A stretch of DNA of 64,000 nucleotides from an uncultured archaeon (GTDB lineage Archaea; Asgardarchaeota; Lokiarchaeia; Sigyniarchaeales; SOKP01), in NCBI GenBank assembly GCA_964632315.1, contig CAZWEM010000006.1:1-64000 (forward strand), written 5' to 3'. This document shows positions 13,994 to 29,692 of the stretch, piece after piece (within the stretch, counting starts at the first letter, position 1; the number at the start of each line of letters is the position of its first letter). A program made the position numbers and the translations under genes. The notes below the pieces were generated by a model. It saw only the letters and a list, made by a program, of their open reading frames with translations, had not been told where the DNA came from and did no database searches.

Positions 13994-14368
13994 TTGAAGA
14001 ATGTATATGTTATTGAAGATAATGAGAAAAACATGAAATTGTTTAGAGCCATACTAAAACTTATTCCTGATTTAGAAATATATGAAGAGTCGAAAGGTAA
14101 CTTAGGTTTAGAATTAATTAAGTCAGGGGAACCAGATCTTATAATTTTAGACATCCAATTACCAGAAATGAATGGAATTGAGATTTGTAGTGAGCTAAGA
14201 AAGTTAGATAAGTTTAAAGATACTCCAATTATTGCAGTTACCTCTTTCGCAATGAAAGGAGATAAAGAAAGAATACTAAAAGCGGGATTTAATCAATATG
14301 TTTCTAAGCCAATTAAAGTAAAAGAATTCAGAGAAATTGTAAAACGCTACTTAAATCTCATGGATTAA
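13994..14368 (+). CDS. Single-domain response regulator (CheY/DivK-like receiver)
   Basis: IEDN, PDLIILDIQLPEMNG (phospho-Asp), IIAVTS, YVSKP. Confidence 0.95.
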   Translation: MKNVYVIEDNEKNMKLFRAILKLIPDLEIYEESKGNLGLELIKSGEPDLIILDIQLPEMNGIEICSELRKLDKFKDTPIIAVTSFAMKGDKERILKAGFNQYVSKPIKVKEFREIVKRYLNLMD

Positions 14369-14539: not shown

Positions 14540-16027
14540 TCAATGCGAAATTAGTCCTCTTTGTTTGAAAATATCTTTCAATTCGGAGATTACTTGAGAT
14601 CTTATATTATCCTTAGTCATTTTGTTATATACTAATTTTGGTGGCGGTGGTGGTGGTTTTAGATCTTCAAGAGAAAAAAAATTCTTTTTCGGAGCCATTG
14701 GAGGTTTCGGATGTTCACTGGGGGATTCAATTGATTTTGCTTCCACTATGGAATTTCCAATAGGTTCTAGAGCACTTTTGATTTTGTTTATTGTTTCTTT
14801 ATCCATTTTTTCACTCGCAATTTTTTCTTGAGAGGATGGAATTGGTAATTCATTTAGTCTTTTTGGAGGACCATTTCCTTTGAATTGTTTTGATCGTTTT
14901 ATATCACCATCTGATTTAGATTTTTTCTTTCCTTTCATCTGTTTATCTGAAGTTTGAGTAGAAGAACTTATATATTCTAAGGGGACTTTCTCAAATGGTA
15001 CTGAAAAAAGTGATTGGGAGATATCTGAAGGTGCTAACCTCTGAAGTAATCTTTTTACTTCCGATAATTCTGTAGCGACTTTATCCATTAATTTAAGATT
15101 GATATCCAATATTTTTTGGAGTTTCGATTCAATTTCAGGTATAAGTATATTTTCATGATTTTCTTTTGCGAAGATATTTTTTATACTCCTTGTTATTTCG
15201 GGTTCACTAGAATAAAAATTAAAAATGCTTGTTGGAATTATCTCAAAATTCCATGATTTTGAGCTATTCATTAAAACGTTACTTATCTTATCAGTTAGAT
15301 ACTCAACTCTTATTTGATAATCGGGATCACTAACTATGTCGGAATCTGCTTTATTTAGTAAAATTTCAATATACGGATTTTCTTCTAAGAAAGTTAAAAT
15401 ATCTACAATATCTTGAAAATACTGAAGCGCATCCTCGTATCTTAAATCATCTTGAGAATCAAATACGAAAATTAGCACATCAAGATGTACGAAAAAATTC
15501 TCTGGAGTAGACAAATATTCTTCAATGTGATCTTTCTGACCTCCTAAATCCCATAACACCAAATCTAGCTTCTCAGATTGAAATTCTTCTACATTAGATC
15601 CGATAGTTGGTTCTAAGTTGATCATATCATTATAATTATAATCGTTAAATAGTCTATTTATTAATGAAGTCTTTCCAGCATAATCTAATCCTGCAAACAC
15701 GACTTTCATTTTTGGTTTCTTTAAATAAATACTCCTCTTATTCCAAGCGTTAGCAATAAGATATGAACTGATTAATGCTCCTTTAAATACTTGTTCTTCG
15801 ATAAATGCCTTTTTACTTAATTTTTTATATTCGGAAGCTTTTATCGTTGAGAGATCTCGTATTGTTTCAATTTTTAGCTTTTTAAACTTTATTAAATTTT
15901 CCTCAGAAACACCCTTTAGGATGTTAACATCCAAATCTAATATAGCTTTTAGGCTAGTAGGATAATATTCAATCTTAAGAAATCGATCACTAAAAAATTT
16001 TATCAATCTTTTGGCTGATTCAGACAT
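14540..16027 (-). CDS. Multidomain Arf-like small GTPase: HhH-like N-terminus, G domain, coiled coil, polyproline C-terminus
   Basis: GLDYAGKT, EPTIG, WDLGGQ, NKAD, PTSI; LKGV....KFKKLKIETIRDL; PPPPPP near the C-terminus. Confidence 0.88.
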   Translation of the reverse strand: MSESAKRLIKFFSDRFLKIEYYPTSLKAILDLDVNILKGVSEENLIKFKKLKIETIRDLSTIKASEYKKLSKKAFIEEQVFKGALISSYLIANAWNKRSIYLKKPKMKVVFAGLDYAGKTSLINRLFNDYNYNDMINLEPTIGSNVEEFQSEKLDLVLWDLGGQKDHIEEYLSTPENFFVHLDVLIFVFDSQDDLRYEDALQYFQDIVDILTFLEENPYIEILLNKADSDIVSDPDYQIRVEYLTDKISNVLMNSSKSWNFEIIPTSIFNFYSSEPEITRSIKNIFAKENHENILIPEIESKLQKILDINLKLMDKVATELSEVKRLLQRLAPSDISQSLFSVPFEKVPLEYISSSTQTSDKQMKGKKKSKSDGDIKRSKQFKGNGPPKRLNELPIPSSQEKIASEKMDKETINKIKSALEPIGNSIVEAKSIESPSEHPKPPMAPKKNFFSLEDLKPPPPPPKLVYNKMTKDNIRSQVISELKDIFKQRGLISH

Positions 16028-16226: not shown

Positions 16227-16877
16227 ATGCAAATTTCAAATTCAACTGAGTTAGAGGTTGAAAAATCAAAAGGTTTTAAAATGACCTTAGAAAAAAATCC
16301 ATTTATATTAATAATTGGCAAATATGATCACACACTTGGTCCACGATCTTTGTTCACCTCTATTCCATTAAATGGAGATAATTTCATAAGAAATCTATTA
16401 AGAGACGCCTTAAATACAAAAAATAAGTTTGTTATAATTGATTTTGCGAGATTTTATGCTCAAATTTATAAGATAGAAGTTCCGGATAGTTCAGCAAGAG
16501 GAGGAAAGCAATTATATGCTATAATAATGTTAAGAGATTCAGGTTATCCTTTTATCCCTATTTTACATTTTAAACGAATTGAAATGCTTTTCCATAAAAT
16601 TGACAATAAACAGATTCTCTCTAATAATAAAGCCGCATTTAATCATTTTTATAATGAAATCAATGAGATCTACCAAAAAAAAGGTGAAATTCTTCCTGTA
16701 GAATCCGTAAATCTTCAAATCCGAAGTGGAGTGAATACAATTCAAGGGTTTTGTGAGATAATACTAGAAAACCTAAAAAAAGATGATTACTCAAAAGAAG
16801 AAACTATTACTCATATTGAAATGATGCTTGATTCATGCAGTGATATTATAGACGCTCTGGAAATTAATTGCTCTTAA
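16227..16877 (+). CDS. Folliculin/SMCR8-like longin (uDENN) domain fused to a degenerate HisKA (DHp) domain
   Basis: YDHTLGPRSLF and VPDSSARGGKQLYAI. The C-terminal NLQIRSGVNTIQGFCEIILE aligns with SHELRTPLNAIIGFADLLLE of the adjacent kinase. Confidence 0.7.
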   Translation: MQISNSTELEVEKSKGFKMTLEKNPFILIIGKYDHTLGPRSLFTSIPLNGDNFIRNLLRDALNTKNKFVIIDFARFYAQIYKIEVPDSSARGGKQLYAIIMLRDSGYPFIPILHFKRIEMLFHKIDNKQILSNNKAAFNHFYNEINEIYQKKGEILPVESVNLQIRSGVNTIQGFCEIILENLKKDDYSKEETITHIEMMLDSCSDIIDALEINCS

Positions 16878-16918
16878 AAGAATATTTAATTAAAAAAAAC
16901 AAACATTAGATGTAAAAC

Positions 16919-19102
16919 ATGCCTTTTCTTTTAGAAGAAATAGAAAGAGAATTTGCAATTCAGGCAAGAGAAAAGATTGAAGAAAAAATTAAGGTTATTA
17001 GTGAAATCTTAAAGGATGCTATCGTACAAGTTGATCACAAGGGAAAGATTAACTTCTGTAATCATTCAGCGGAAATATTATTTGGATATTCTAAGCAGAA
17101 ATTGATAGGAACGAAGATATATTCATTAATTTTCAGAGAAAATCATACAAATAATATTAAAAAAAAATTCCTCAACTTTCTCAAAACAGGATACAGCAAT
17201 CTCATTGAGGATTTAAATGACATGTATATCCCAAGCAAAAAAAATCTCAAAATTCCTGTTGAGATTTCGATAAATCTAATAAAAATAGATAAAAAATCTA
17301 ATGCAATTGCAATTATTAGAGATGTGTCTAAAAGAAAAGAAAGCGAAAGAATATTAAATGAAAACCTTAAGTTTCAGAGGCTTATAGCCTCCATTTCCTC
17401 CGGATTCTTAGGAAATGTTGATATAGACGATACGATTATTTCTACTTTTCAAAGAATAGGAAGAGAAGTCGGTGTCAGTCGCGTTTTTATATACTTATAT
17501 AATGATAATAAAAAATTGCTTAAAGTTCCTTACGAATGGTGTGTGAAAGGTGTAAAGCCTCATATTGAGAAGTATATGGAATATTTTACTAATAATAATC
17601 CTTGGGTAATTGATAAATTAATGGATGGTGAAAAGGTAATTGTCAATAATGTTAATGATCTCCCAAAGCAAGCAAACAACTTCAAAACCCATATGATAAC
17701 TTTAGGAACTAAATCAAATATCATACTTCCTTTATACGTTGAAGGAAGAATAGTAGGATTTATTGGTTTTGATGATCATAAAGATTATAGAGAATGGAAT
17801 CAAGAAGAAAAAACCCTTCTTCAAATTACATCTCAGATAATCGGGTTTGTCCTAGAGCGAAAAAATCATCTTGATGAATTAAGAAAATCCGAAGAAAAAT
17901 ATAGAACTATATTAGAAAGTATAAGAGAAGGATACTTTGAAATTGATCTAAATGGCAATTTCACTTTTTTTAATGATGCTTTATGTGATCTTACAGGATA
18001 TTCAAGAGAAGAACTATTTAATTTGAATTATTCGGAATTATGCGACGAGAAAACCAATCGATATCTCGTTAATGAGATCACTAAACTGGTTGAAAGAGAT
18101 GACACATTTACAATTTTAGAATACACTCAAATAAAGAAGGATAAGAGTGAAGTAAATCTCGAATCATCGATTTATTTGATGCATGATTATGAAAATGAGA
18201 TTATTGGAATTAAGGGAATGATAAGAAATATTACTGAAAGGAAAAAATCAGAAGCTCTAAGAAAGCAATTCAATCAAAAATTAGAAGAAGAAGTAAAGAT
18301 AAGAACTAGAGAATTAGAGGATGCAATGAAGAAACAAAAACTCTATTTGGATCAAATTGTAAAAGCATCACAATTTAAAACAGAATTTCTAGCAACAATG
18401 TCTCATGAGTTACGAACTCCATTAAACGCAATAATAGGATTTGCAGATTTATTATTAGAAGGTGTGTATGGCTTCCTTAATGATGATCAAACAGATTTCA
18501 TTATGGATATCAAAAACTCTGCAGAACATCAATTTGAAATGATTTCGAACATATTGGACATTTCAAAAATTGAATCAGGTAACCTTTCATTAAAAAGAGA
18601 GCAAATTGAGCTTTCTCCGATTATAGATCAAGTAATTTCAACAATAAGACCATTATTAAATAGTAAAAATCTGTCAATTCGAGTTAAAGGTTTTAGCGAC
18701 CATAAAACTATTCTTGCTGATAGGATTAAATTGAAGCAGATTTTTTATAATCTTTTAAGTAATGCTGTTAAATTTACCGATAAAGGGACTATTACTATTG
18801 AGATTGTTGAAAATAAAGATAATTGGAAATTTAACGTTATTGATACTGGAATAGGAATAAGAAAGAGTGATTATAACTTGATTTTTAAAGATTTTAAAAG
18901 AGTCGAATCTGATTATGTAAGAAGTAAACAAGGTGCGGGATTAGGCCTATCTCTTACTAAAAGAATTATTGAACTGCACGGAGGTACTATTTCTTTCACA
19001 AGCAAGTATGGTGAAGGCAGTTGTTTTTCATTTTCAATCCCAAGGAAAATAAATCTTTATGATAATTTACAAAATCTAAATGAGTTTTTACTCTCACTAT
19101 GA
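16919..19102 (+). CDS. Cytoplasmic sensor histidine kinase PAS-GAF-PAS-HisKA-HATPase
   Basis: MSHELRTPLNAIIGF, NLLSNAVKFT, DTGIGI, GAGLGL, HGG; PAS and GAF segments; no TM. Confidence 0.95.
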   Translation: MPFLLEEIEREFAIQAREKIEEKIKVISEILKDAIVQVDHKGKINFCNHSAEILFGYSKQKLIGTKIYSLIFRENHTNNIKKKFLNFLKTGYSNLIEDLNDMYIPSKKNLKIPVEISINLIKIDKKSNAIAIIRDVSKRKESERILNENLKFQRLIASISSGFLGNVDIDDTIISTFQRIGREVGVSRVFIYLYNDNKKLLKVPYEWCVKGVKPHIEKYMEYFTNNNPWVIDKLMDGEKVIVNNVNDLPKQANNFKTHMITLGTKSNIILPLYVEGRIVGFIGFDDHKDYREWNQEEKTLLQITSQIIGFVLERKNHLDELRKSEEKYRTILESIREGYFEIDLNGNFTFFNDALCDLTGYSREELFNLNYSELCDEKTNRYLVNEITKLVERDDTFTILEYTQIKKDKSEVNLESSIYLMHDYENEIIGIKGMIRNITERKKSEALRKQFNQKLEEEVKIRTRELEDAMKKQKLYLDQIVKASQFKTEFLATMSHELRTPLNAIIGFADLLLEGVYGFLNDDQTDFIMDIKNSAEHQFEMISNILDISKIESGNLSLKREQIELSPIIDQVISTIRPLLNSKNLSIRVKGFSDHKTILADRIKLKQIFYNLLSNAVKFTDKGTITIEIVENKDNWKFNVIDTGIGIRKSDYNLIFKDFKRVESDYVRSKQGAGLGLSLTKRIIELHGGTISFTSKYGEGSCFSFSIPRKINLYDNLQNLNEFLLSL

Positions 19103-19117
19103 AAAGGTGGAAGTATA

Positions 19118-21253
19118 ATGACCCAAGATGAAAATTTACTAAGAAGAGAAAATATAAGAGAAATTATGCAAATCGCAAAAAATTGGTCTAATTTAGAGAC
19201 ACTTATTTCAAGTGTAACTTCTAAATTAATTAGCTATACCGATAGCGATGAAGCAATACATGCTTCGCTAAGAGACATAACAACATTGACTAACGTCGAT
19301 TATGCCTTTCTTTTTCAGTTGGATGAAAGTAAAGATTTATTTATAAATACCCATGATTGGTATCGTGAAAGAATTCCATCAAAAACAAGGTTCTTCCAAA
19401 AAGTTGAATTATCGAAATATCCATGGTGGGAAGCTCAATTAAAAAAAGGCAGAGTCATTAAAATTGATGAAATCACTTCACGCTCAGAAGAGGGTGTAAA
19501 ATTAAAAGAATTAATGATTACAAATGATATTAGTTCACTGGTTATCTATCCACTTTTCATTAAAACAAAACTTATAGGCTGTATGGGTTTTGCTAAATTA
19601 ATTCATACCTCAAAATGGAATGAACTTGAAATGATAATTTTGAAATTATCGTCGCAATTGATTGGGAATACTTTAGAGCGCCAGAAAATTGAAAAACTAC
19701 TAAAGGAATCCGAAGAGAAATATAGACTCATTATTGAAAATATCAATGATTTAATTTTTATCATCGATCAACAATTTCAGATTGAATATATTAACGAGGA
19801 AATGGTTTATAAATTACTTGGGTATCAAATTTCTGAACTAATTGGGAAAAACAGTTTAGATTTTATACACCCCGGAGAAAGGGAGAGATTAGTTGGCTTA
19901 TTGCGAAATGAAGTAGAATATAATGGTTCAAAAACCGAGATGAGATTTAAACATAAGCGTAATGATTGGATATGGTTTGAATGTAAAGGTAAGCATTTTA
20001 TGAGCAAGACTAACCAATCTAAGTGGTTACTTTCATCCAGAGATATATCAGATAGAAAAATAGTAGAGGAAAGGTATAAAAATTTATTTGAAAAATCCCC
20101 TAATGCGATATTACTGATAGATTTTAACGGAAAGATTATTGATTCTAACTCAACAGTAGAAAGAATTTTTGGATTTACTAAAGATTTCTTTATTAAAAAA
20201 AACATCGATGATTTAAAAGAAGTCTTCTCGCTAGAAATGAGACATTATTTTAAATACATCTTTCAAGCATATTTTAAAAATATTTTCCCTGATCCAATCG
20301 AACTCGAAATAGAAAAACCAGATAACGAGAAAATTTGGATTCAAGTACAAGCTTCAATTATTAAACAAGTAAGCAAAACTCTTGTCCAATTCATTTTTGA
20401 AGATATTACGCAAAAAAAGAAAAGCAACTTGTTAGAAAAGAAATTTAAAAATGAGTTAGAAAATGAAGTAGCAATTAGGACTAAGGAGTTAAATGATGCG
20501 CTTGAACAACAAAAACTTTATTTAGAACAGATTGTAAAATCGTCTCGGTTCAAGACAGAATTTATGGCAACTATGTCTCATGAACTAAGAACACCCTTAA
20601 ATGCAATCATTGGATTCACAGATTTATTACTTGAAGGTGCATATGGAGACCTAAATGAAGAGCAAGAAGAGTTTATTTCAGATATCAAATCTTCTGCAGA
20701 TCATCAATTAGATATGATAAATAATATATTAGATATTTCAAAAATTGAATCTGGACAAGTAACACTTAATATTCAAAAATTTTCATTAAATTCACTTGTA
20801 AATCAAATCCTTTCAAGTTTAAAACCACAATTTTCTAAAAAAGACTTGGAGATAAACCTTAAAAACTTAAATGACGAAATATTTATTTACGCTGACCCTA
20901 TAAAGTTTAGAGAAATTTTATTAAACCTTTTAAGTAACGCTCTAAAATTTACAATGAAAGGAAAGATTTATTTAACAATCCAAAAAGATTTCTCGAATTG
21001 GGTTTTTAAAGTTCGGGACACTGGAATTGGAATTGATAGAGAAGACTTCCCCCTTATTTTCAAAGAATTTAAAAGAGTAAATTCGACGTATGTGCGTTCT
21101 GTTCCTGGTACTGGACTAGGATTATCGTTAACAAAAAGATTAGTAGAATTACATGGAGGAGAAATTAATTTTTTTAGTATAATAGGTTCAGGGACCACAT
21201 TTACATTTAACATTCCAAGAAAGTGGGAATATGATATCAAAGAAAAAAATTAA
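19118..21253 (+). CDS. Cytoplasmic sensor histidine kinase GAF-PAS-PAS-HisKA-HATPase
   Basis: MSHELRTPLNAIIGF, NLLSNALKFT, DTGIGI, GTGLGL; FIHP PAS motif; kinase core closely similar to the upstream gene. Confidence 0.95.
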   Translation: MTQDENLLRRENIREIMQIAKNWSNLETLISSVTSKLISYTDSDEAIHASLRDITTLTNVDYAFLFQLDESKDLFINTHDWYRERIPSKTRFFQKVELSKYPWWEAQLKKGRVIKIDEITSRSEEGVKLKELMITNDISSLVIYPLFIKTKLIGCMGFAKLIHTSKWNELEMIILKLSSQLIGNTLERQKIEKLLKESEEKYRLIIENINDLIFIIDQQFQIEYINEEMVYKLLGYQISELIGKNSLDFIHPGERERLVGLLRNEVEYNGSKTEMRFKHKRNDWIWFECKGKHFMSKTNQSKWLLSSRDISDRKIVEERYKNLFEKSPNAILLIDFNGKIIDSNSTVERIFGFTKDFFIKKNIDDLKEVFSLEMRHYFKYIFQAYFKNIFPDPIELEIEKPDNEKIWIQVQASIIKQVSKTLVQFIFEDITQKKKSNLLEKKFKNELENEVAIRTKELNDALEQQKLYLEQIVKSSRFKTEFMATMSHELRTPLNAIIGFTDLLLEGAYGDLNEEQEEFISDIKSSADHQLDMINNILDISKIESGQVTLNIQKFSLNSLVNQILSSLKPQFSKKDLEINLKNLNDEIFIYADPIKFREILLNLLSNALKFTMKGKIYLTIQKDFSNWVFKVRDTGIGIDREDFPLIFKEFKRVNSTYVRSVPGTGLGLSLTKRLVELHGGEINFFSIIGSGTTFTFNIPRKWEYDIKEKN

Positions 21254-22767
21254 ATTACATACTTACCAATTAAATTATTCGCTTGAGTCGCAATAAGTTT
21301 TAATTGATCATAATCATTTTCTAAAATTGCCCTAACTAAATTTACTTTCAATTTTTTTACTCTTTCAAGTGTGTTAGAAAACTCTTGTTTGATTTTTTCA
21401 TATAAATTATCCATTCGATCGTATAGATTTTTTGCATGTTCATTATCGAAGGTAGTGAGATTAATGATCATCTCTTCATATGACTGATTAATTTCACGCA
21501 ACCAATCTTTCCCTATGCCTTCAATTAACTTTAAATCATCAAGATTACCCGTTCGAGAAGCTTCTTTAAACTTTTCTCGGTGTTCATTGAATAAATTCTC
21601 GAAAAAATTCTTGATTTTAATTTCAATTGATTCTAAATTTATATTTGGATTTAGGAAAAGAGTTACAGTGTAATCCTCATATCCAAAGACTCTTAACTTA
21701 AGATTAGTTCCTTCCAATCCTAATTTTGTCAATTCTTGAATATTTAATTCCAATGAAAACTTTTCAAGTGCACTAATGAACATTGGTACTAAATCTAAAT
21801 CAAACCCCGCTTGAATTTCAGATTTCAACGTTTTTGGTAATAAATAATTTTCAAGTGTTCCATTTGCAATTTCAAATTTAGTCAAAAGCTTTCCATCTTT
21901 ATCAGCAATAAACACACCAAGAAATGATGGCATTGATTCAATTTGATAATCCTCCAATTGAATAAAATCTTCTTTCGAATATGAATCTATAATCGCGTTA
22001 AAATGAGATCTACCTTTTTCAGTTAAAGAAACTAACTTTTTATTTGTTTTATCATCAACAATTATATGATCCTTACGCAATAGGCTTTCTACAAGATAGT
22101 CTACTAATTTTTTGGGTCTATTTAGCTTGATATATAAAGAATCCAAAGAGATAACGACCTCGTTATGAATTAAGGCTATTAATTTAATCGACTCATCAAT
22201 TATATTGAATATCAAGCCTTCCTCTAATAGTTCCTCTTCTAAACAAGATTTTATTATCTCAATAAAGTATGAAAATGTTTGCTTGAAATATTTTTTTTTT
22301 AAGCTTGTAAAAATAAACCTTGTTAATTCTGTTTTTGGAAATTCTGATCTAATGATAGCTTTAATTTCCTCTATTTTTTTTGGTGTAATTAAATCAATTT
22401 TGTGCATTAGCACGTAGACTATTGTTGATGAAATTAATTCATCCCTTACCTCTAAAACCTTTTTAATGAATTCTCTAATATAATCTAAGGACAAACTTAC
22501 ATCCATCACAAGAATTACGACTCTCGTGTTATAAAAAACCTCCTTATCATCAGAATTTAGCCATCGTTCATTCTCTTGTCCAGCTAAATCAAAAACACCA
22601 ATTTCTTCACTTATTCCAGGCAATCTCATTATTAATGACTCTTCTCCAAATGTTGGTTCAAGAGCATACTCAAGAAGTCTATTAGAATTTTCTCCTTCAA
22701 AGAATACTTTGCGTAGAGTTGTTTTTCCCGCTCCAGGTGGTCCAATGAAGATTATCTTTTTACTCAT
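21250..22767 (-). CDS. Rag/Gtr-like small GTPase fused to winged-helix and longin/roadblock-like domains
   Basis: GPPGAGKT, EPT, DLAGQ, HKID, FTS; LTEKG wing motif; GVFIADKDGKLL...LVPMFISALEKFS.EL. Confidence 0.8.
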   Translation of the reverse strand: MSKKIIFIGPPGAGKTTLRKVFFEGENSNRLLEYALEPTFGEESLIMRLPGISEEIGVFDLAGQENERWLNSDDKEVFYNTRVVILVMDVSLSLDYIREFIKKVLEVRDELISSTIVYVLMHKIDLITPKKIEEIKAIIRSEFPKTELTRFIFTSLKKKYFKQTFSYFIEIIKSCLEEELLEEGLIFNIIDESIKLIALIHNEVVISLDSLYIKLNRPKKLVDYLVESLLRKDHIIVDDKTNKKLVSLTEKGRSHFNAIIDSYSKEDFIQLEDYQIESMPSFLGVFIADKDGKLLTKFEIANGTLENYLLPKTLKSEIQAGFDLDLVPMFISALEKFSLELNIQELTKLGLEGTNLKLRVFGYEDYTVTLFLNPNINLESIEIKIKNFFENLFNEHREKFKEASRTGNLDDLKLIEGIGKDWLREINQSYEEMIINLTTFDNEHAKNLYDRMDNLYEKIKQEFSNTLERVKKLKVNLVRAILENDYDQLKLIATQANNLIGKYVI

Positions 22768-22770
22768 CTT

Positions 22771-24072
22771 TTATACCTCCTTTTTAAAATGAAGATGATC
22801 TCTAAATTTTTGCTTTATTTGTCCAACAATCCAAATTAGCTTATTAGCAGATAAGCTTTCAGATATACAGATTAAATTTTTTAATCCAAATAACGTGAAG
22901 TTTATATTGTTGAGGATTATATTTAGACCACTTAAACTAGAGATAATTACATGGTTTACTTTCTCTTTTTTTGCCATTAATTCAAATGTCTTAATTATTT
23001 GAGTGATTAATTTATGAGAATGGTTAATCATTAGTGTGTCGAAATCTTTGGTCATAGATTGAACTATAATGCTATCATTTAGATTTGTTAAAAAGAACAT
23101 AGTCTTTGAAAAATCTATCAATTGAGAGTCTAGAATTCTTTTGAGGTTTGAAGTTTCCTGAGATTTTTCGCTTAAAATCTCATAAAAAGCATTATATAGC
23201 CCATAAATCTTGTCAGGGTGAATACTAGTATAATATAAAGGATTTTGAAAAGCTGATTCAAGTTCCTTTTTAAGATTATCGAAGGTTTTTTCCATAACTA
23301 AATCAATCTTGTGAAAAAACAGAATTAGTTGTGTAGAGTACCCTCTCACATCAATTATTTTTCTAATTTTACTTATTTCCCTCAAAATCTCATCTTTATT
23401 TTCTAACCAACCGGTATAATCAAATATATAAATAATATAATCATTATTGTCAAATGCTAGAATGTGTTCTTGGTCATCCTCGTTTTCAAGCAAATAAGAA
23501 AGCTCCTGTCCTGAGGAATCAAATAATCCAATTTTTAAATCCAACCAAGAATACACACTGGGTGAAATACCTCTTGTTGGCTCAAGTGGATTATATAATA
23601 AATCTTTAGGATCTAAACCCTCGAAAACGATTTTTTTAATAGACGTTTTTCCCGTTCCGGCCCTACCAAGGATGAGGATCTTTCCCGATGATTCTTTTTT
23701 ATAAAATATTACTGCTCGTTCTAAAAAAATTTCATTTCTTTTGTCTACAGGTTGATTAAACACTTCTCTTGCGAATTTTGTTAGCTGAGTTTTAAAACTT
23801 GAAATTTCAATACTTTCCTTTGCTCCAAGAAAGAGGGTTATAATCTCATATCCAACTTTTGGAACTCGAGTTTTATCACAATATGATAATAACAATAGTT
23901 CTTTATAACTCGTTTCAATTAATTCTTCTTGGGAAAAATCGTCGCTATACGCAAAAGTCATGCAGATTTTATTAACTAATTCTTCAGAAACATGAAGTTC
24001 CATAGGAAATTTCACATCTATTTGCGAGCCAAGCTTTGTATCCCAACTAAATAAGACGATTCCTGTTGGCAT
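22771..24072 (-). CDS. Longin-like domain, Rag/Gtr-like GTPase and roadblock-like C-terminal domain
   Basis: GIVLFSWDTKLG N-terminus; GRAGTGKTSIKKIVF, EPTRG, DSSGQ, HKID, YTSI; C-terminal alpha/beta domain. Confidence 0.8.
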   Translation of the reverse strand: MPTGIVLFSWDTKLGSQIDVKFPMELHVSEELVNKICMTFAYSDDFSQEELIETSYKELLLLSYCDKTRVPKVGYEIITLFLGAKESIEISSFKTQLTKFAREVFNQPVDKRNEIFLERAVIFYKKESSGKILILGRAGTGKTSIKKIVFEGLDPKDLLYNPLEPTRGISPSVYSWLDLKIGLFDSSGQELSYLLENEDDQEHILAFDNNDYIIYIFDYTGWLENKDEILREISKIRKIIDVRGYSTQLILFFHKIDLVMEKTFDNLKKELESAFQNPLYYTSIHPDKIYGLYNAFYEILSEKSQETSNLKRILDSQLIDFSKTMFFLTNLNDSIIVQSMTKDFDTLMINHSHKLITQIIKTFELMAKKEKVNHVIISSLSGLNIILNNINFTLFGLKNLICISESLSANKLIWIVGQIKQKFRDHLHFKKEV

Positions 24073-26570: not shown

Positions 26571-27470
26571 CTATTCTTCGATATATAAGATACAATCTTT
26601 GGGCTCTTTATCAAAACGGAGCCGCTTAAAACTAGGAGCTCTTAGATCTACATTTTTAGTAAATTCTAAATATTCTACTTCACAAACTAGTTCGGGCTTT
26701 AACCACACTTTATCATCTTCTTCTCTAAGAATTAAGGAATCCATTTTTTGCTTTAAATCGAATGTTTCTTGGTCTGACCATCCCGTTCCAACTTTTCCGA
26801 GTTGGATTAATTCACCTGCTTTATATGCTCCAATGATTAGGGCTCCAAAAGTATGCTCTCGCTTTCCTTCACCGATCGTATATCCCAAAATTACGCAATC
26901 TAAGGTTTTGAGGTTCTTTATCTTGAGACAAGCATTAACTCTCTTACCAGAATAGTATTTGCTGCCCTTCTTTTTTGCCATGACTCCTTCCGTGCCCATC
27001 TTCTTCATTTTCTTCCATAAATCCATGCCATCTTCTGTGTTATATATTTTCTGTAAATTTTTTCCCTCTTTAATAGATCTTGTTAAAAAATCAAGACGTA
27101 TTTCGATTGGCTCTTCAGTAAGGTCTCTCCCCTTATACTTTAAACAGTCAAATACCACGTAAGTTGCGGGATATTGTTTACTTAATATTTCAATCTTTAA
27201 TTCATTAGAAGTTTGTTCTCTTGATTGGAGTAAAGAAAAATCGGGTAAACCATTATCATTATATACAACAACTTCCCCATCAACAATGCTGTCTTTTTCA
27301 ATTTCAAGCGTGTAAAATTCTGGATAACGGTATCTTATATTTCTCCCACGTCGATTCATCAATTTCCCATCGATATATAACGCCCTTGTTCCATCTAACT
27401 TAGGTTGGAAAATGTATTGATGACTCGATAAGATATTGGGATCTCCCTTCATGCATAACATTGGTTTCAT
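26571..27470 (-). CDS. ligD: ATP-dependent DNA ligase, stand-alone LigD ligase domain
   Basis: KLDGTR adenylation motif, VDGEVV, VFDCL, EGVMAK, GKVGTG, EVEY..T....LRAPSF; overlaps ku. Confidence 0.9.
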   Translation of the reverse strand: MKPMLCMKGDPNILSSHQYIFQPKLDGTRALYIDGKLMNRRGRNIRYRYPEFYTLEIEKDSIVDGEVVVYNDNGLPDFSLLQSREQTSNELKIEILSKQYPATYVVFDCLKYKGRDLTEEPIEIRLDFLTRSIKEGKNLQKIYNTEDGMDLWKKMKKMGTEGVMAKKKGSKYYSGKRVNACLKIKNLKTLDCVILGYTIGEGKREHTFGALIIGAYKAGELIQLGKVGTGWSDQETFDLKQKMDSLILREEDDKVWLKPELVCEVEYLEFTKNVDLRAPSFKRLRFDKEPKDCILYIEE

Positions 27471-28228
27471 TTATTGATGCTAGCCTCTAATGCTTCTATC
27501 AAATTCTCAGTTCCAGCAATTTTCTTTGCTTTACCAGAAACTAATTTGCCTTCTGCTTTTTTCAATATAAGTTCTTTAAGTGATTCAGTAAATGTGTCCT
27601 CATATTTTTCCAAATTAATCGAATCAGACGTGAGTTTGTCTATCAATTCTCGTGCAAGTGTAAGTTCCTTTTCTTTTAAATCGGGTTTATCTTCTAAATT
27701 AGGAACGTTTTTGATATCTCTTATTTGATTTGAATAATTTAAGATCGACAACAAGAGCCCTTCCTTAAAATTGACTACCATACAAGTATATTCTTTTTCT
27801 CTTAAAACAAAAGTAGCTATCGCTGCCTTATTGCTGTTTGCCAAGGTTTCTTTAAATAAGAAGTAGGGACGTTCAGTATTTTCTGTTGGACCGATATAAT
27901 AATGTCGGGTAAAGTAAATTTGGCTTATTTTATCTATATCAATAAATTCTTGGATTTCTATTAGATCATCTGCTTTAGGTTTTAATTCATTAATCTCTTC
28001 TTTAGAGATCATGTAATAGGCATCTTTACCCATTTCTATACCTTTAATTATATCTCCCCAGCTAATTTCTTTCCCACACTCAGAGCAAACACGGTTGTAT
28101 TTAATCCGTCCATTATCTTTTTCGTGAAAGAGATGAAAATTTATTTGATCATCTTCCACTGCAGAATATAAAGCAACGGGGATGTTTACAAGACCAAATC
28201 CTAGGTATCCCTTCCATACAGCTTTCAT
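27467..28228 (-). CDS. ku: Prokaryotic Ku (NHEJ end-binding protein)
   Basis: WKGxLxFGLVNIPVxLYSA, GRIKYxRVC, IEIxEF, Y.D.F, NLIEALEAS; ATG 28228. Confidence 0.95.
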   Translation of the reverse strand: MKAVWKGYLGFGLVNIPVALYSAVEDDQINFHLFHEKDNGRIKYNRVCSECGKEISWGDIIKGIEMGKDAYYMISKEEINELKPKADDLIEIQEFIDIDKISQIYFTRHYYIGPTENTERPYFLFKETLANSNKAAIATFVLREKEYTCMVVNFKEGLLLSILNYSNQIRDIKNVPNLEDKPDLKEKELTLARELIDKLTSDSINLEKYEDTFTESLKELILKKAEGKLVSGKAKKIAGTENLIEALEASINK

Positions 28229-28459
28229 TTGACATAAACACCTCATTAAATGTTAATCTTTGGGTATTTTAATACATGAGAATAAAAAATTTCATATTGA
28301 TAGCTTAAAAGATATTAATAAATGCAAGCTCTAGAATTCCTAAGAAATTGCGGTATTTCAAATTAAAATTATAAGTAGTGAAGATATGGTCCAAAACAAG
28401 ATTCTACCTTGCTAAGACGAAATATTTAAATTAATAATTGAAAGCTAATTAGGTGTAGA

Positions 28460-29017
28460 ATGTCTTTAAAAGAATATAATAGTAAGCGAGATTTTAAAAA
28501 AACGGGTGAACCCAAAGGTGAAATTAAGAGAGGTAAAAATAGGATTTTTGTTGTCCAAAAGCACGATGCTAGCAGGTTACACTATGATTTTAGATTACAA
28601 ATGGAGGGAGTGCTAAAGTCCTGGGCGATACCTAAAGGTCCTTCACTTGATCCTAGTAAAAAACGTTTGGCAATTCCTACAGAAGATCATCCCATTGATT
28701 ATGCTGATTTTGAAGGGAATATTCCTGAAAATAATTATGGTGCTGGAAGCGTCATTGTTTGGGATACGGGAATTTATGAAAATAAAACTGAAAAAAATGA
28801 GCAAGTAATCAGTATCAAGGAGGCCTACGATAGGGGTCATATAACATTAATACTATATGGAGAGAAATTAAAGGGAGAATTTGCACTAATCAAAATGAAG
28901 GGTAGCGATAAATGGTTATTAATTAAGAAAGATGATTCTTTTGCAGACAGAAAAAATGATATCTTAGAGAAACACCCTAAATCGGTTTTAAGCGATAAGG
29001 ACATAGATGAACTTTAG
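28460..29017 (+). CDS. Stand-alone LigD 3'-phosphoesterase
   Basis: LxEYxxKRDFxKTxEP, FVVQKHDASRLHYDFRL, SWAIPKGPSLDP, TEDHPxDY, YGAG. Confidence 0.95.
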   Translation: MSLKEYNSKRDFKKTGEPKGEIKRGKNRIFVVQKHDASRLHYDFRLQMEGVLKSWAIPKGPSLDPSKKRLAIPTEDHPIDYADFEGNIPENNYGAGSVIVWDTGIYENKTEKNEQVISIKEAYDRGHITLILYGEKLKGEFALIKMKGSDKWLLIKKDDSFADRKNDILEKHPKSVLSDKDIDEL

Positions 29018-29143: not shown

Positions 29144-29692
29144 ATGATAAATCCAACAGAAGTAAATTTCAAAATCGTCATTATGGGCATGGAGAATGCA
29201 GGAAAAACGACAATTTTGAACATAATTCAAAAAGCGGTTAATGTACCTCCTAAATATCCCCCTCAAATGGAACCTACGAAAGGCGTGAAAAGAGAGGTTT
29301 TTACACTTTTTAATAAAAATGTTGCGATATGGGATTTTGGTGGACAAGAAGCATATCGCAATGAGTATCTAGCTAACCCAGACAAATATTTTCAAGCAAT
29401 TTCATTATTTTATTACGTTATTGATATCCAAGACCCTTATCGGATATTTCTTTCAATTATGTATTTTACAGGAATATTTACTTTAATAAAAAATCACAGT
29501 CCGTCAGCTAAAATTATTTTACTATTTCATAAGATGGATCCTAATTTTGATTCTCTTCAGAAAAATCTTAAAAAGATTTTTTTAAAACGAATTGAACCAA
29601 CAATAAGTAGTTGTGGAATAAAATTACAAATTTATGATACTACAATTTTTAAACTTGATAGCATCAGAGCTCCCTTTTTGGAGCAACTTTAA
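29144..29692 (+). CDS. Stand-alone Arf/Rag-like small GTPase
   Basis: GMENAGKT, EPTKG, WDFGGQ, HKMD. Confidence 0.9.
   Translation: MINPTEVNFKIVIMGMENAGKTTILNIIQKAVNVPPKYPPQMEPTKGVKREVFTLFNKNVAIWDFGGQEAYRNEYLANPDKYFQAISLFYYVIDIQDPYRIFLSIMYFTGIFTLIKNHSPSAKIILLFHKMDPNFDSLQKNLKKIFLKRIEPTISSCGIKLQIYDTTIFKLDSIRAPFLEQL

Follow-up and report, generated by a model that had tools for sequence, protein, structure and literature searches.

We analyzed a 64,000-nucleotide stretch of DNA from an uncultured archaeon (contig CAZWEM010000006.1, positions 1 to 64,000; hereafter the window) and focus here on the protein encoded at 16227-16877, for which we use the working name LONG. The explanation that best accounts for our results is that LONG is a two-domain signaling adaptor of Loki-type Asgard archaea and a candidate GTPase-activating protein (GAP) for Rag GTPases, a reading to which we assign a probability of about 0.5. 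We are considerably more confident about its N-terminal part, which is very probably a longin domain of the folliculin/NPRL2 type that has retained the arginine finger. The C-terminal part is a helical hairpin resembling the dimerization and histidine phosphotransfer (DHp) domain of sensor kinases, and the gene lies in a conserved module together with Rag-type GTPases, histidine kinases and stand-alone receivers.

The LONG gene and its family

The gene is embedded in low-GC DNA (~30% in the window) of a 4.45-Mb genome from the Promethearchaeota (Loki-type Asgard archaea), where it is present as a single copy. We found 271 homologues at E<=1e-3, all of them in metagenome-assembled genomes of the Promethearchaeota type, and the open reading frame is therefore far beyond chance. 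A sequence-only reading of this DNA had described a folliculin/SMCR8-type longin domain at 16227-16700. The two peptides that it quoted, FILIIGKYDHTLGPRSLF and YKIEVPDSSARGGKQLYAIIM, are present exactly in the translation of that interval, and the arginine it numbered 91 is indeed specified by codon 91, AGA, at 16497-16499. The end coordinate that it gave, 16700, falls between two domains: the frame continues to 16877, so that a second, C-terminal domain had been cut off. This omission matters, because the missed hairpin changes the likely mode of action of the protein.

Conservation was assessed in an alignment of 120 cluster representatives that are 56-83% identical to LONG, where Y33, D34, G38, P39, D87, R91, G92 and Q95 are each kept in 120/120 sequences. 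In a profile search of 400 Asgard genomes, orthologues were confined to one order, the Promethearchaeales (69/134 genomes in family f1, 12/14 in family f3 and 1/4 in family f4), with 0 matches outside it, and the distribution is patchy within the genus too (15/41 genomes). An exhaustive profile search of 1.84 billion representative proteins recovered a family of only 23 clusters with no eukaryotic protein among them, and no family for LONG was found in a search of NCBIfam. One relative carries the depositor label Hodarchaeota. D34 and G38 persist in 14/14 of the most distant relatives, and P39 in 13/14.

Weak paralogues of LONG (E 1e-4 to 5e-3) were also observed. One lies in the same genome (C29:53298-53570, plus strand) within an open frame of 376 aa, and proteins of ~350 aa similar to it occur in many genomes of the genus g12. 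These weak paralogues contain a related N-terminal longin within a longer protein and are possibly longin-GTPase fusions. A scan for sigma-70 promoters and intrinsic terminators gave fewer sites than shuffled sequence, a type of scan that is not meaningful for an archaeon.

A longin domain closest to NPRL2 and folliculin

The AlphaFold2 (AF2) model of LONG, with a mean predicted local distance difference test score (pLDDT) of 81, has longin topology. Its strands are beta1 (residues 27-34), beta2 (38-44), beta3 (68-72), beta4 (76-86) and beta5 (94-104), and the helices of the longin domain are alpha1 (52-63), alpha2 (112-123) and alpha3 (135-151). We compared this model with 48,161 PDB representatives using VIA-align, where the best matches cover residues ~22-156. 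The best solved match is NPRL2 (8fw5_B; Z 13.3, root-mean-square deviation 3.0 Å, 133 residues), followed by a Lokiarchaeal longin (8yqg_B; Z 12.5), yeast Npr2 (8adl_S; Z 12.4) and folliculin (6nzd_H; Z 12.2, identity 15%); generic longins, including VAMP7, sigma-adaptins, TRAPP and Mon1/Ccz1, reach Z 8-10.5. The six top matches of a Foldseek search with the same model are chains of GATOR1, FLCN and the SEA complex, and a shape search of the ESM Atlas returned NPRL2/Npr2 clusters together with a Heimdallarchaeal cluster that has Folliculin Pfam matches (template modeling score, TM, 0.56-0.60).

Both the order of the secondary structure elements and the Z scores of 12-13 over ~130 residues are those of the GAP-type longin class. 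The fold proposed in the sequence-only reading is thus the one predicted, with NPRL2 and FLCN as the closest solved structures. Where that reading had called for comparison with FLCN, NPRL2 and SMCR8, the first two compare well and SMCR8-C9orf72 more weakly (Z 8.5-9.3).

An invariant arginine aligned with folliculin R164

Previous work located the arginine finger of the longin domain, R147 in SMCR8 and R164 in FLCN, in the loop between betaL4 and betaL5, and attributed GAP activity to the longin dimer and not to the SMCR8 longin alone (10.1101/2020.04.16.045708). A second element, the GP motif, occupies the loop before beta2 or the start of this strand; it is reported in FLCN, NPRL2, SMCR8 and C9orf72 only and is absent in longins of the guanine nucleotide exchange factor (GEF) type (PMC12290439). 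The corresponding residues of LONG, G38-P39, are at the start of the model strand 38-44, as is characteristic of GAP-type longins, and R91 falls between the model strands 76-86 and 94-104, i.e. in the beta4-beta5 loop. The triplet A90-R91-G92 shows no variation in the 120 representatives, which bears out the conservation expected if R91 is the finger that the sequence-only reading took it to be.

Among 34 family members, the only Pfam family matched consistently is Folliculin (PF11704), with 30/34 members matching, a best E of 3.8e-5, and scores below the cut-off where checked. That cut-off is passed by proteins in 42/400 Asgard genomes, which belong to lineages other than that of LONG, and no protein of LONG's own genome passes it. 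The Pfam-positive Asgard folliculin-like longins carry the motifs F-D-x3-G-P and D-x-x-A-R-G-G. Since LONG profiles failed to reach folliculin in the PDB, we bridged the two by means of an intermediate profile, A8, which is an alignment of Asgard longins above the Pfam Folliculin cut-off. By hhalign, the profile of the LONG longin domain matches A8 (E 7.5e-6, probability 84%); the two GP motifs coincide in this alignment, and R91 falls on an Arg that is invariant in A8. A8 in turn matches chains of human folliculin (6ulg_L, 6nzd_H/8dhb; E 4e-4), where the same invariant Arg falls on the R of FFIKDSLA-R-GFQRWYSII. With the count started at chain residue 146, this Arg of folliculin is at position 164, and the alignment confirms the FLCN peptide quoted in the sequence-only reading, FFIKDSLARGFQRWYSII. 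At the level of alignment, R91 is therefore the equivalent of FLCN R164 by way of a two-step profile chain.

A8 also matches the solved Loki longin 8yqg (E 1.2e-6), which is without Arg at the finger position. This Lokiarchaeal Roadblock-Longin protein, whose fold is as near to LONG as that of NPRL2, is a potential natural negative control.

LONG is not an orthologue of folliculin, because it lacks a DENN domain and scores under the Pfam cut-off. In place of a DENN domain, the chain ends after a helical hairpin of 60 residues.

A C-terminal hairpin that resembles a kinase dimerization domain

The two helices of the hairpin span residues 158-184 and 190-215 in the AF2 model. The tail includes an invariant stretch, L-Q-I-R-S-G-V/I-N-T-I-Q-G-F, that is similar to the H-box of the neighboring kinases, S-H-E-L-R-T-P-L-N-A-I-I-G-F. 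When the tail was aligned by hhalign with nine HisKA domains taken from the window and related loci, both helices were matched (E 2.5e-5, probability 75%) and L163 was placed on the phospho-acceptor histidine. Pfam HisKA matches the tail of one orthologue, P0094, at E 4e-4, which is under the cut-off, with a match that begins just past the His position. A diverse profile of the LONG family matches solved DHp domains, e.g. 7n0e_A, at E 0.016-0.15.

The position of the phospho-acceptor is occupied by Leu in 83 of the 120 representatives, Met in 36 and Ile in 1; His is never found there. No ATPase (HATPase_c) domain follows the hairpin, where the protein ends. With Leu, Met or Ile in place of the histidine and no ATPase domain, the tail of LONG is a pseudo-DHp and not a kinase.

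Two distant relatives from metagenome contigs, P0133 (391 aa) and P0135 (388 aa), combine a PAS domain, a longin domain and a DHp-like hairpin without an ATPase domain. Their architecture is kinase-like, with the FLCN-like longin in the place of the catalytic module.

A module of Rag-type GTPases, kinases and receivers

The features of LONG and of the genes around it are collected in Table 1. The neighborhood spans 9.5 kb and holds three Gtr1_RagA-type GTPases and two HisKA kinases, compared with ~0.06 and 0.03 expected per 10 kb from the 26 Gtr1_RagA-type and 15 HisKA genes of the 4.45-Mb genome. The gene for G495 is divergent from that for LONG, and 3 nt separate the genes for G505 and G433, which are both on the minus strand (21250-24072). 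Region 8-244 of RagA is the part to which G433 aligns, and the AF2 model of G433 (pLDDT 82.6) has longin-GTPase-roadblock (L-G-R) topology. The P-loop (GxxxxGKT) and the DxxGQ motif are intact in G495, G505, G433 and a further GTPase of 182 aa encoded at 29144, and the Rag-type HKxD motif is found in G505, G433 and the 182-aa protein; G495 has NKAD instead.

Table 1. Features of LONG and of the surrounding gene module (coordinates in the window).
Feature	Coordinates	Strand	Basis
Stand-alone receiver (response regulator)	13994..14368	+	Pfam Response_reg 5.4e-26; receivers flank most related loci
G495, 495-aa Arf/Rag-like GTPase, NKAD G4 motif, Pro-rich tail	14540..16027	-	Gtr1_RagA 7.9e-25, Arf 4.8e-21
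LONG gene (longin + pseudo-DHp), 216 aa	16227..16877	+	Open reading frame list, translation, 271 homologues, single copy in genome
Longin domain, residues ~20-156 (beta-beta-alpha-beta-beta-beta-alpha-alpha)	16284..16694	+	AF2 model, VIA-align, Foldseek, Pfam
GP motif Y33-D34-H-T-L-G38-P39, beta1/beta2 junction	16323..16343	+	Invariant 120/120; FLCN/NPRL2/SMCR8/C9orf72 position per PMC12290439
Arg91 (AGA), candidate arginine finger, beta4-beta5 loop	16497..16499	+	Codon, 120/120 conservation, loop position, alignment to FLCN R164
His-less DHp/HisKA-like helical hairpin, residues 157-216	16695..16874	+	AF2 helices, hhalign, Pfam, profile
Leu163 at phospho-acceptor His position	16713..16715	+	Aligned to H of SHELRTP
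PAS/GAF histidine kinase 1	16919..19102	+	Pfam PAS, GAF, HisKA, HATPase_c; 42 bp past LONG
GAF/PAS histidine kinase 2	19118..21253	+	Pfam
G505, 505-aa Rag-type GTPase, HKID G4 motif, C-terminal extensions	21250..22767	-	Pfam Gtr1_RagA; PDB matches Gtr1/RagA only
G433, 433-aa longin-GTPase-roadblock Rag-type GTPase, HKID G4 motif, W10-D11-x3-G15	22771..24072	-	Pfam Gtr1_RagA, profile positions 1-232

We considered how this arrangement is kept in 45 related loci from species-level genomes. They include the locus of the cultured Promethearchaeum syntrophicum MK-D1, whose LONG protein is 49% identical. The recurrent order is receiver, divergent GTPase, LONG, a GTPase of ~292 aa (in most relatives), two kinases, the G505/G433 pair and a receiver. 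A divergent GTPase gene lies within 700 bp upstream of LONG in 20/37 loci. Directly downstream, and co-directional with LONG, is a Rag-type GTPase gene in 22/39 loci (at a distance of ~12-94 bp) or a kinase gene in 11/39, and a co-directional kinase gene is present within 5 kb downstream in 25/27. In loci with full flanks, at least two kinases are found in 15/15 and at least three GTPases in 12/15. G505 is paired with G433 in most related loci, and receivers flank the module in most.

The ~292-aa protein of the relatives (e.g. L010:10634-11509, plus strand) is a Gtr1_RagA-type GTPase with the motifs GPSGTGKT, DLAGQ and HKAD and a winged-helix-like C-terminus. It is the most obvious operon partner of LONG, and its winged helix hints at a transcriptional output. 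A search of the genome studied here with this protein as the query, including the interval 16877-16919, did not find it; the best match was the 505-aa paralogue, at 30% identity.

Co-occurrence at the level of the genus points in the same direction as gene order. LONG is present in 14/15 genomes that have a G433 orthologue and in 0/26 of those without, and thus the module behaves as one accessory unit. The sequence-only reading had taken the GTPases encoded at 14540, 21250, 22771 and 29144, on either side of LONG, as its likely substrates. The first three are indeed part of the conserved module. The one at 29144, the GTPase of 182 aa, we rejected as a member of the system: it has no counterpart in any related locus, and unrelated genes lie between it and the signaling module. 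The intervening genes include one for a LigD 3'-phosphoesterase at 28460-29017 (Pfam LigD_N 1.7e-44; interval 26571-29017), beside which are two minus-strand genes that the sequence-only reading had interpreted as Ku and a ligase.

Other clusters of Gtr1_RagA-type genes occur in the same genome, one with three genes within 9 kb (C54:7219-16475) and two with HisKA kinases (C11:70194-83157 and C24:42797-44660), and the linkage of kinases and GTPases may be common throughout the genome. The GTPases of the module have features of their own. In G495, a long, low-complexity, Lys-rich linker follows the G domain and leads to a PPPPPP run (14540-14760, minus strand) that could bind profilin or the cytoskeleton. 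G505 has a faint Pfam match to the winged-helix family DUF6293_C (E 0.039) at residues ~219-258, between the G domain and a roadblock-like region, and this stretch resembles the winged-helix tail of the ~292-aa paralogue of the relatives. The longin domain of G433 (residues 1-123) contains an invariant W10-D11-x3-G15 with the spacing of W33-D34...G38 in C9orf72 and of Y33-D34...G38 in LONG. Sequence kinship between the LONG longin and this N-terminal longin, as the shared (W/Y)D-x3-G spacing might suggest, was rejected on the basis of an hhalign E of 0.59.

A proposed mechanism and a predicted complex

GAP activity of LONG toward the neighboring GTPases is the best-supported mechanism, and we put the odds for and against it as even; the case for it is strengthened by the conserved synteny and by the co-occurrence with Rag-type GTPases. 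What we infer about binding, GAP catalysis, the substrate GTPase, dimerization and the direction of the signal can be put together as follows. The longin domain would most probably bind one or several of the Rag-type GTPases in its module through their G domains; these are G433 and G505 here and the ~292-aa winged-helix GTPase in most relatives. R91 would then be inserted from the beta4-beta5 loop, beside the GP loop, to promote GTP hydrolysis in the manner of FLCN R164, NPRL2 R78 and SMCR8 R147. The His-less DHp hairpin would most probably dimerize LONG, and so pair its longins as eukaryotic longin GAPs require, and/or dock LONG on the neighboring PAS histidine kinases or stand-alone receivers. 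In other words, two-component signaling would set the GTP state of Rag-like switches.

We predicted the complex of LONG with residues 1-308 of G433, GTP and Mg in three runs, together with three controls. The prediction gives weak support, with a score of 0.33 (runs 0.33, 0.38 and 0.33) and a best control of 0.00; the runs share at least 53% of their contacts, and the pLDDT of the partner is at least 77. The mark that it passes is passed by 58/80 solved complexes and 2/110 mismatched pairs, and at scores of 0.60 or less by 7/80 and by both of the passing mismatches, a calibration that is only approximate here because we used our own alignments and ligands.

Alternative roles for LONG

Several observations weigh against the catalytic reading. 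The predicted complex scores weakly, and similarity to solved FLCN-Rag or GATOR1-Rag complexes may be behind its passing the mark. The Pfam Folliculin model matches LONG itself with E 8.8e-4 and 19.6 bits over residues 68-125, under the cut-off of 23.3, and direct searches of the PDB with the protein and with family, longin-only and diverse profiles returned no folliculin, NPRL2 or SMCR8; they matched a CheY-like stretch, by chance, and histidine kinases in the case of the tail. The ~292-aa GTPase, which is the best substrate candidate in the relatives, is absent from this genome. Co-occurrence is in part the physical linkage of genes in one mobile module, and the related genomes are not independent. 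Finally, the invariant surface arginine could serve binding instead of catalysis, and in the most distant relatives its position is Arg in 11/14, Lys in 2 and Glu in 1.

In a reading that we consider somewhat unlikely, LONG is a non-catalytic platform or adaptor. Its longin domain would bind a Rag-like GTPase as a scaffold, an effector or a GEF-type platform, following the models of Ragulator, TRAPP, Mon1-Ccz1 or the conservon roadblock protein CvnB, the pseudo-DHp would tether the GTPase to kinases or receivers, and R91 and the GP loop would have been kept for binding. Most longin and roadblock proteins and their dimers are GEF platforms or scaffolds and not GAPs (PMC10933270), and Lys or Glu takes the place of the Arg in 3/14 distant relatives. 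The solved longin 8yqg, from a Lokiarchaeal protein, matches LONG in structure just as well (Z 12.5) yet has no Arg, the kinase, roadblock and GTPase systems of the actinobacterial conservons operate without an Arg-finger longin, and the synteny fits a platform as well as it fits a GAP. The motifs themselves argue for catalysis, in that the GP motif reportedly occurs in GAP longins alone and is absent in the GEF type (PMC12290439) and the Arg is kept in 120/120 representatives and aligned to FLCN R164. The nearest folds, too, are the catalytic NPRL2 and FLCN and not FNIP2 or NPRL3.

It is also conceivable, but improbable, that LONG serves mainly to regulate the histidine kinases. Its His-less DHp would then form mixed dimers with the DHp of a kinase and block trans-autophosphorylation, or would sequester receivers, and the longin domain would be a regulatory input that senses, for example, a GTP-bound GTPase, with the GTPases acting upstream rather than as substrates. 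The similarity of the pseudo-DHp to the HisKA domains of the neighboring kinases is consistent with this role, although that similarity is modest (hhalign probability 75%, Pfam under the cut-off). A kinase gene directly downstream of LONG, separated by a 42-bp gap here and likewise adjacent in 11/39 loci, fits as well, as do the existing PAS-longin-DHp-like proteins without an ATPase domain and the kinase-modulating accessory proteins documented in actinobacterial G-protein systems. This role does not account for how strictly the FLCN-type GP and Arg motifs are conserved, nor for the co-transcription arrangement with a Rag-type GTPase in 22/39 loci. Regulation of the kinases and the role of LONG as an adaptor and candidate GAP are compatible and not mutually exclusive.

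Comparison with known longin and GTPase systems

Asgard longins like those of NPRL2 and FLCN, including NPRL2-like longins fused to two-component domains, were described in silico by Liu et al. (bioRxiv 10.1101/2020.10.19.343400), who proposed that regulation in these organisms remains centered on two-component systems. The GP motif and the arginine finger were likewise identified in silico in Asgard FLCN/SMCR8-type longins (PMC12290439, Traffic 2025), in a study that covers 15 Asgard longins and asks whether ArfR or Rag/Gtr GTPases are the partners of these proteins and whether the longins are GAPs. In MK-D1, Tran et al. (PMC10933270) reported proteins of longin-GTPase-roadblock architecture and noted that genes for GTPases do not, as a rule, share an operon with genes for longins. 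LONG shares the fold class, the GP motif and the Arg arrangement of the published Asgard FLCN/SMCR8-type and NPRL2-like longins, and differs from them as a patchy subfamily restricted to Promethearchaeales, with a His-less DHp tail and a module of Rag-type GTPases.

FLCN-FNIP2 (Lst7-Lst4 in yeast) is the GAP for RagC/D, and NPRL2/Npr2, in GATOR1/SEACIT, is the GAP for RagA/B (Gtr1). The likeness of LONG to folliculin extends over a longin domain (Z 12.2) with a GP loop and a D-x-x-A-R-G finger, the alignment of R91 with R164 and genomic partners of the Rag family. In contrast to folliculin, LONG has no DENN domain, ~15% identity, a sub-threshold Pfam score, a kinase-type C-terminal hairpin and no identified FNIP-like partner. 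NPRL2/Npr2 is its best structural match (8fw5_B, Z 13.3; 8adl_S, Z 12.4) and its clusters are the closest named ones by shape in the ESM Atlas, whereas the NPRL2-specific C-terminal domain and the NPRL3 and DEPDC5 partners are absent and no direct sequence similarity is detectable. With SMCR8-C9orf72 (CSW), an Arf/Rab GAP, LONG has in common the finger in the betaL4-betaL5 loop, in a system where a longin dimer is needed, and the Y-D-x3-G-P spacing of LONG is that of W33-D34...G38-P39 in C9orf72. LONG differs in having both elements in one chain, without a DENN domain, and in its weaker structural similarity to this complex (Z 8.5-9.3).

The actinobacterial conservons (AGPS), comprising a CvnA kinase, a CvnB roadblock protein, CvnC and a CvnD GTPase (PMC13343842), and the MglA-MglB pair similarly associate prokaryotic sensor kinases, regulators of the roadblock/longin superfamily and small GTPases. 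These systems are bacterial and differ in their MglB-type roadblock without the GP and Arg motifs, in the GTPase family and in lacking a pseudo-DHp fusion. The conservons are the closest prokaryotic analogy to the LONG module, a likeness that we take as analogy only.

A more far-reaching version of the GAP reading seems to us doubtful but worth stating. LONG might be a homodimeric, R91-dependent GAP that has the C9orf72-type (Y/W)D-x3-GP element and the FLCN/SMCR8-type Arg in one chain, and whose dead-kinase hairpin would let PAS kinases and receivers control the RagA/C-like pair G433 and G505 and, in relatives, the fusion of a Rag GTPase with a winged helix. The module would then be a prokaryotic forerunner of the GATOR1/FLCN-Rag axis, with two-component signaling in the place of TOR, from which the heterodimeric longin GAPs of eukaryotes would have arisen later by duplication and division of labor.

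Implications

LONG belongs to an already published class of Asgard longins, and its kind is not new in itself; our literature search found no paper describing this specific LONG module. Our analysis adds a correspondence to R164 at the level of single residues and a set of tightly linked, co-inherited Rag-type GTPase candidates, including in a cultured organism. The module supplies concrete pairs, namely a single-copy longin with an R164-aligned finger and three to four Rag-type GTPases whose gain and loss go with its own. Such pairings are hard to predict in MK-D1, where GTPase and longin genes generally do not share operons (PMC10933270), and the orthologous locus of this cultured archaeon offers a testable pairing of regulator and GTPase. 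If R91-dependent GAP activity proves to be true, the relationship between longin GAPs and Rag GTPases would be older than the eukaryotes, and in these archaea it would be wired to two-component signaling.

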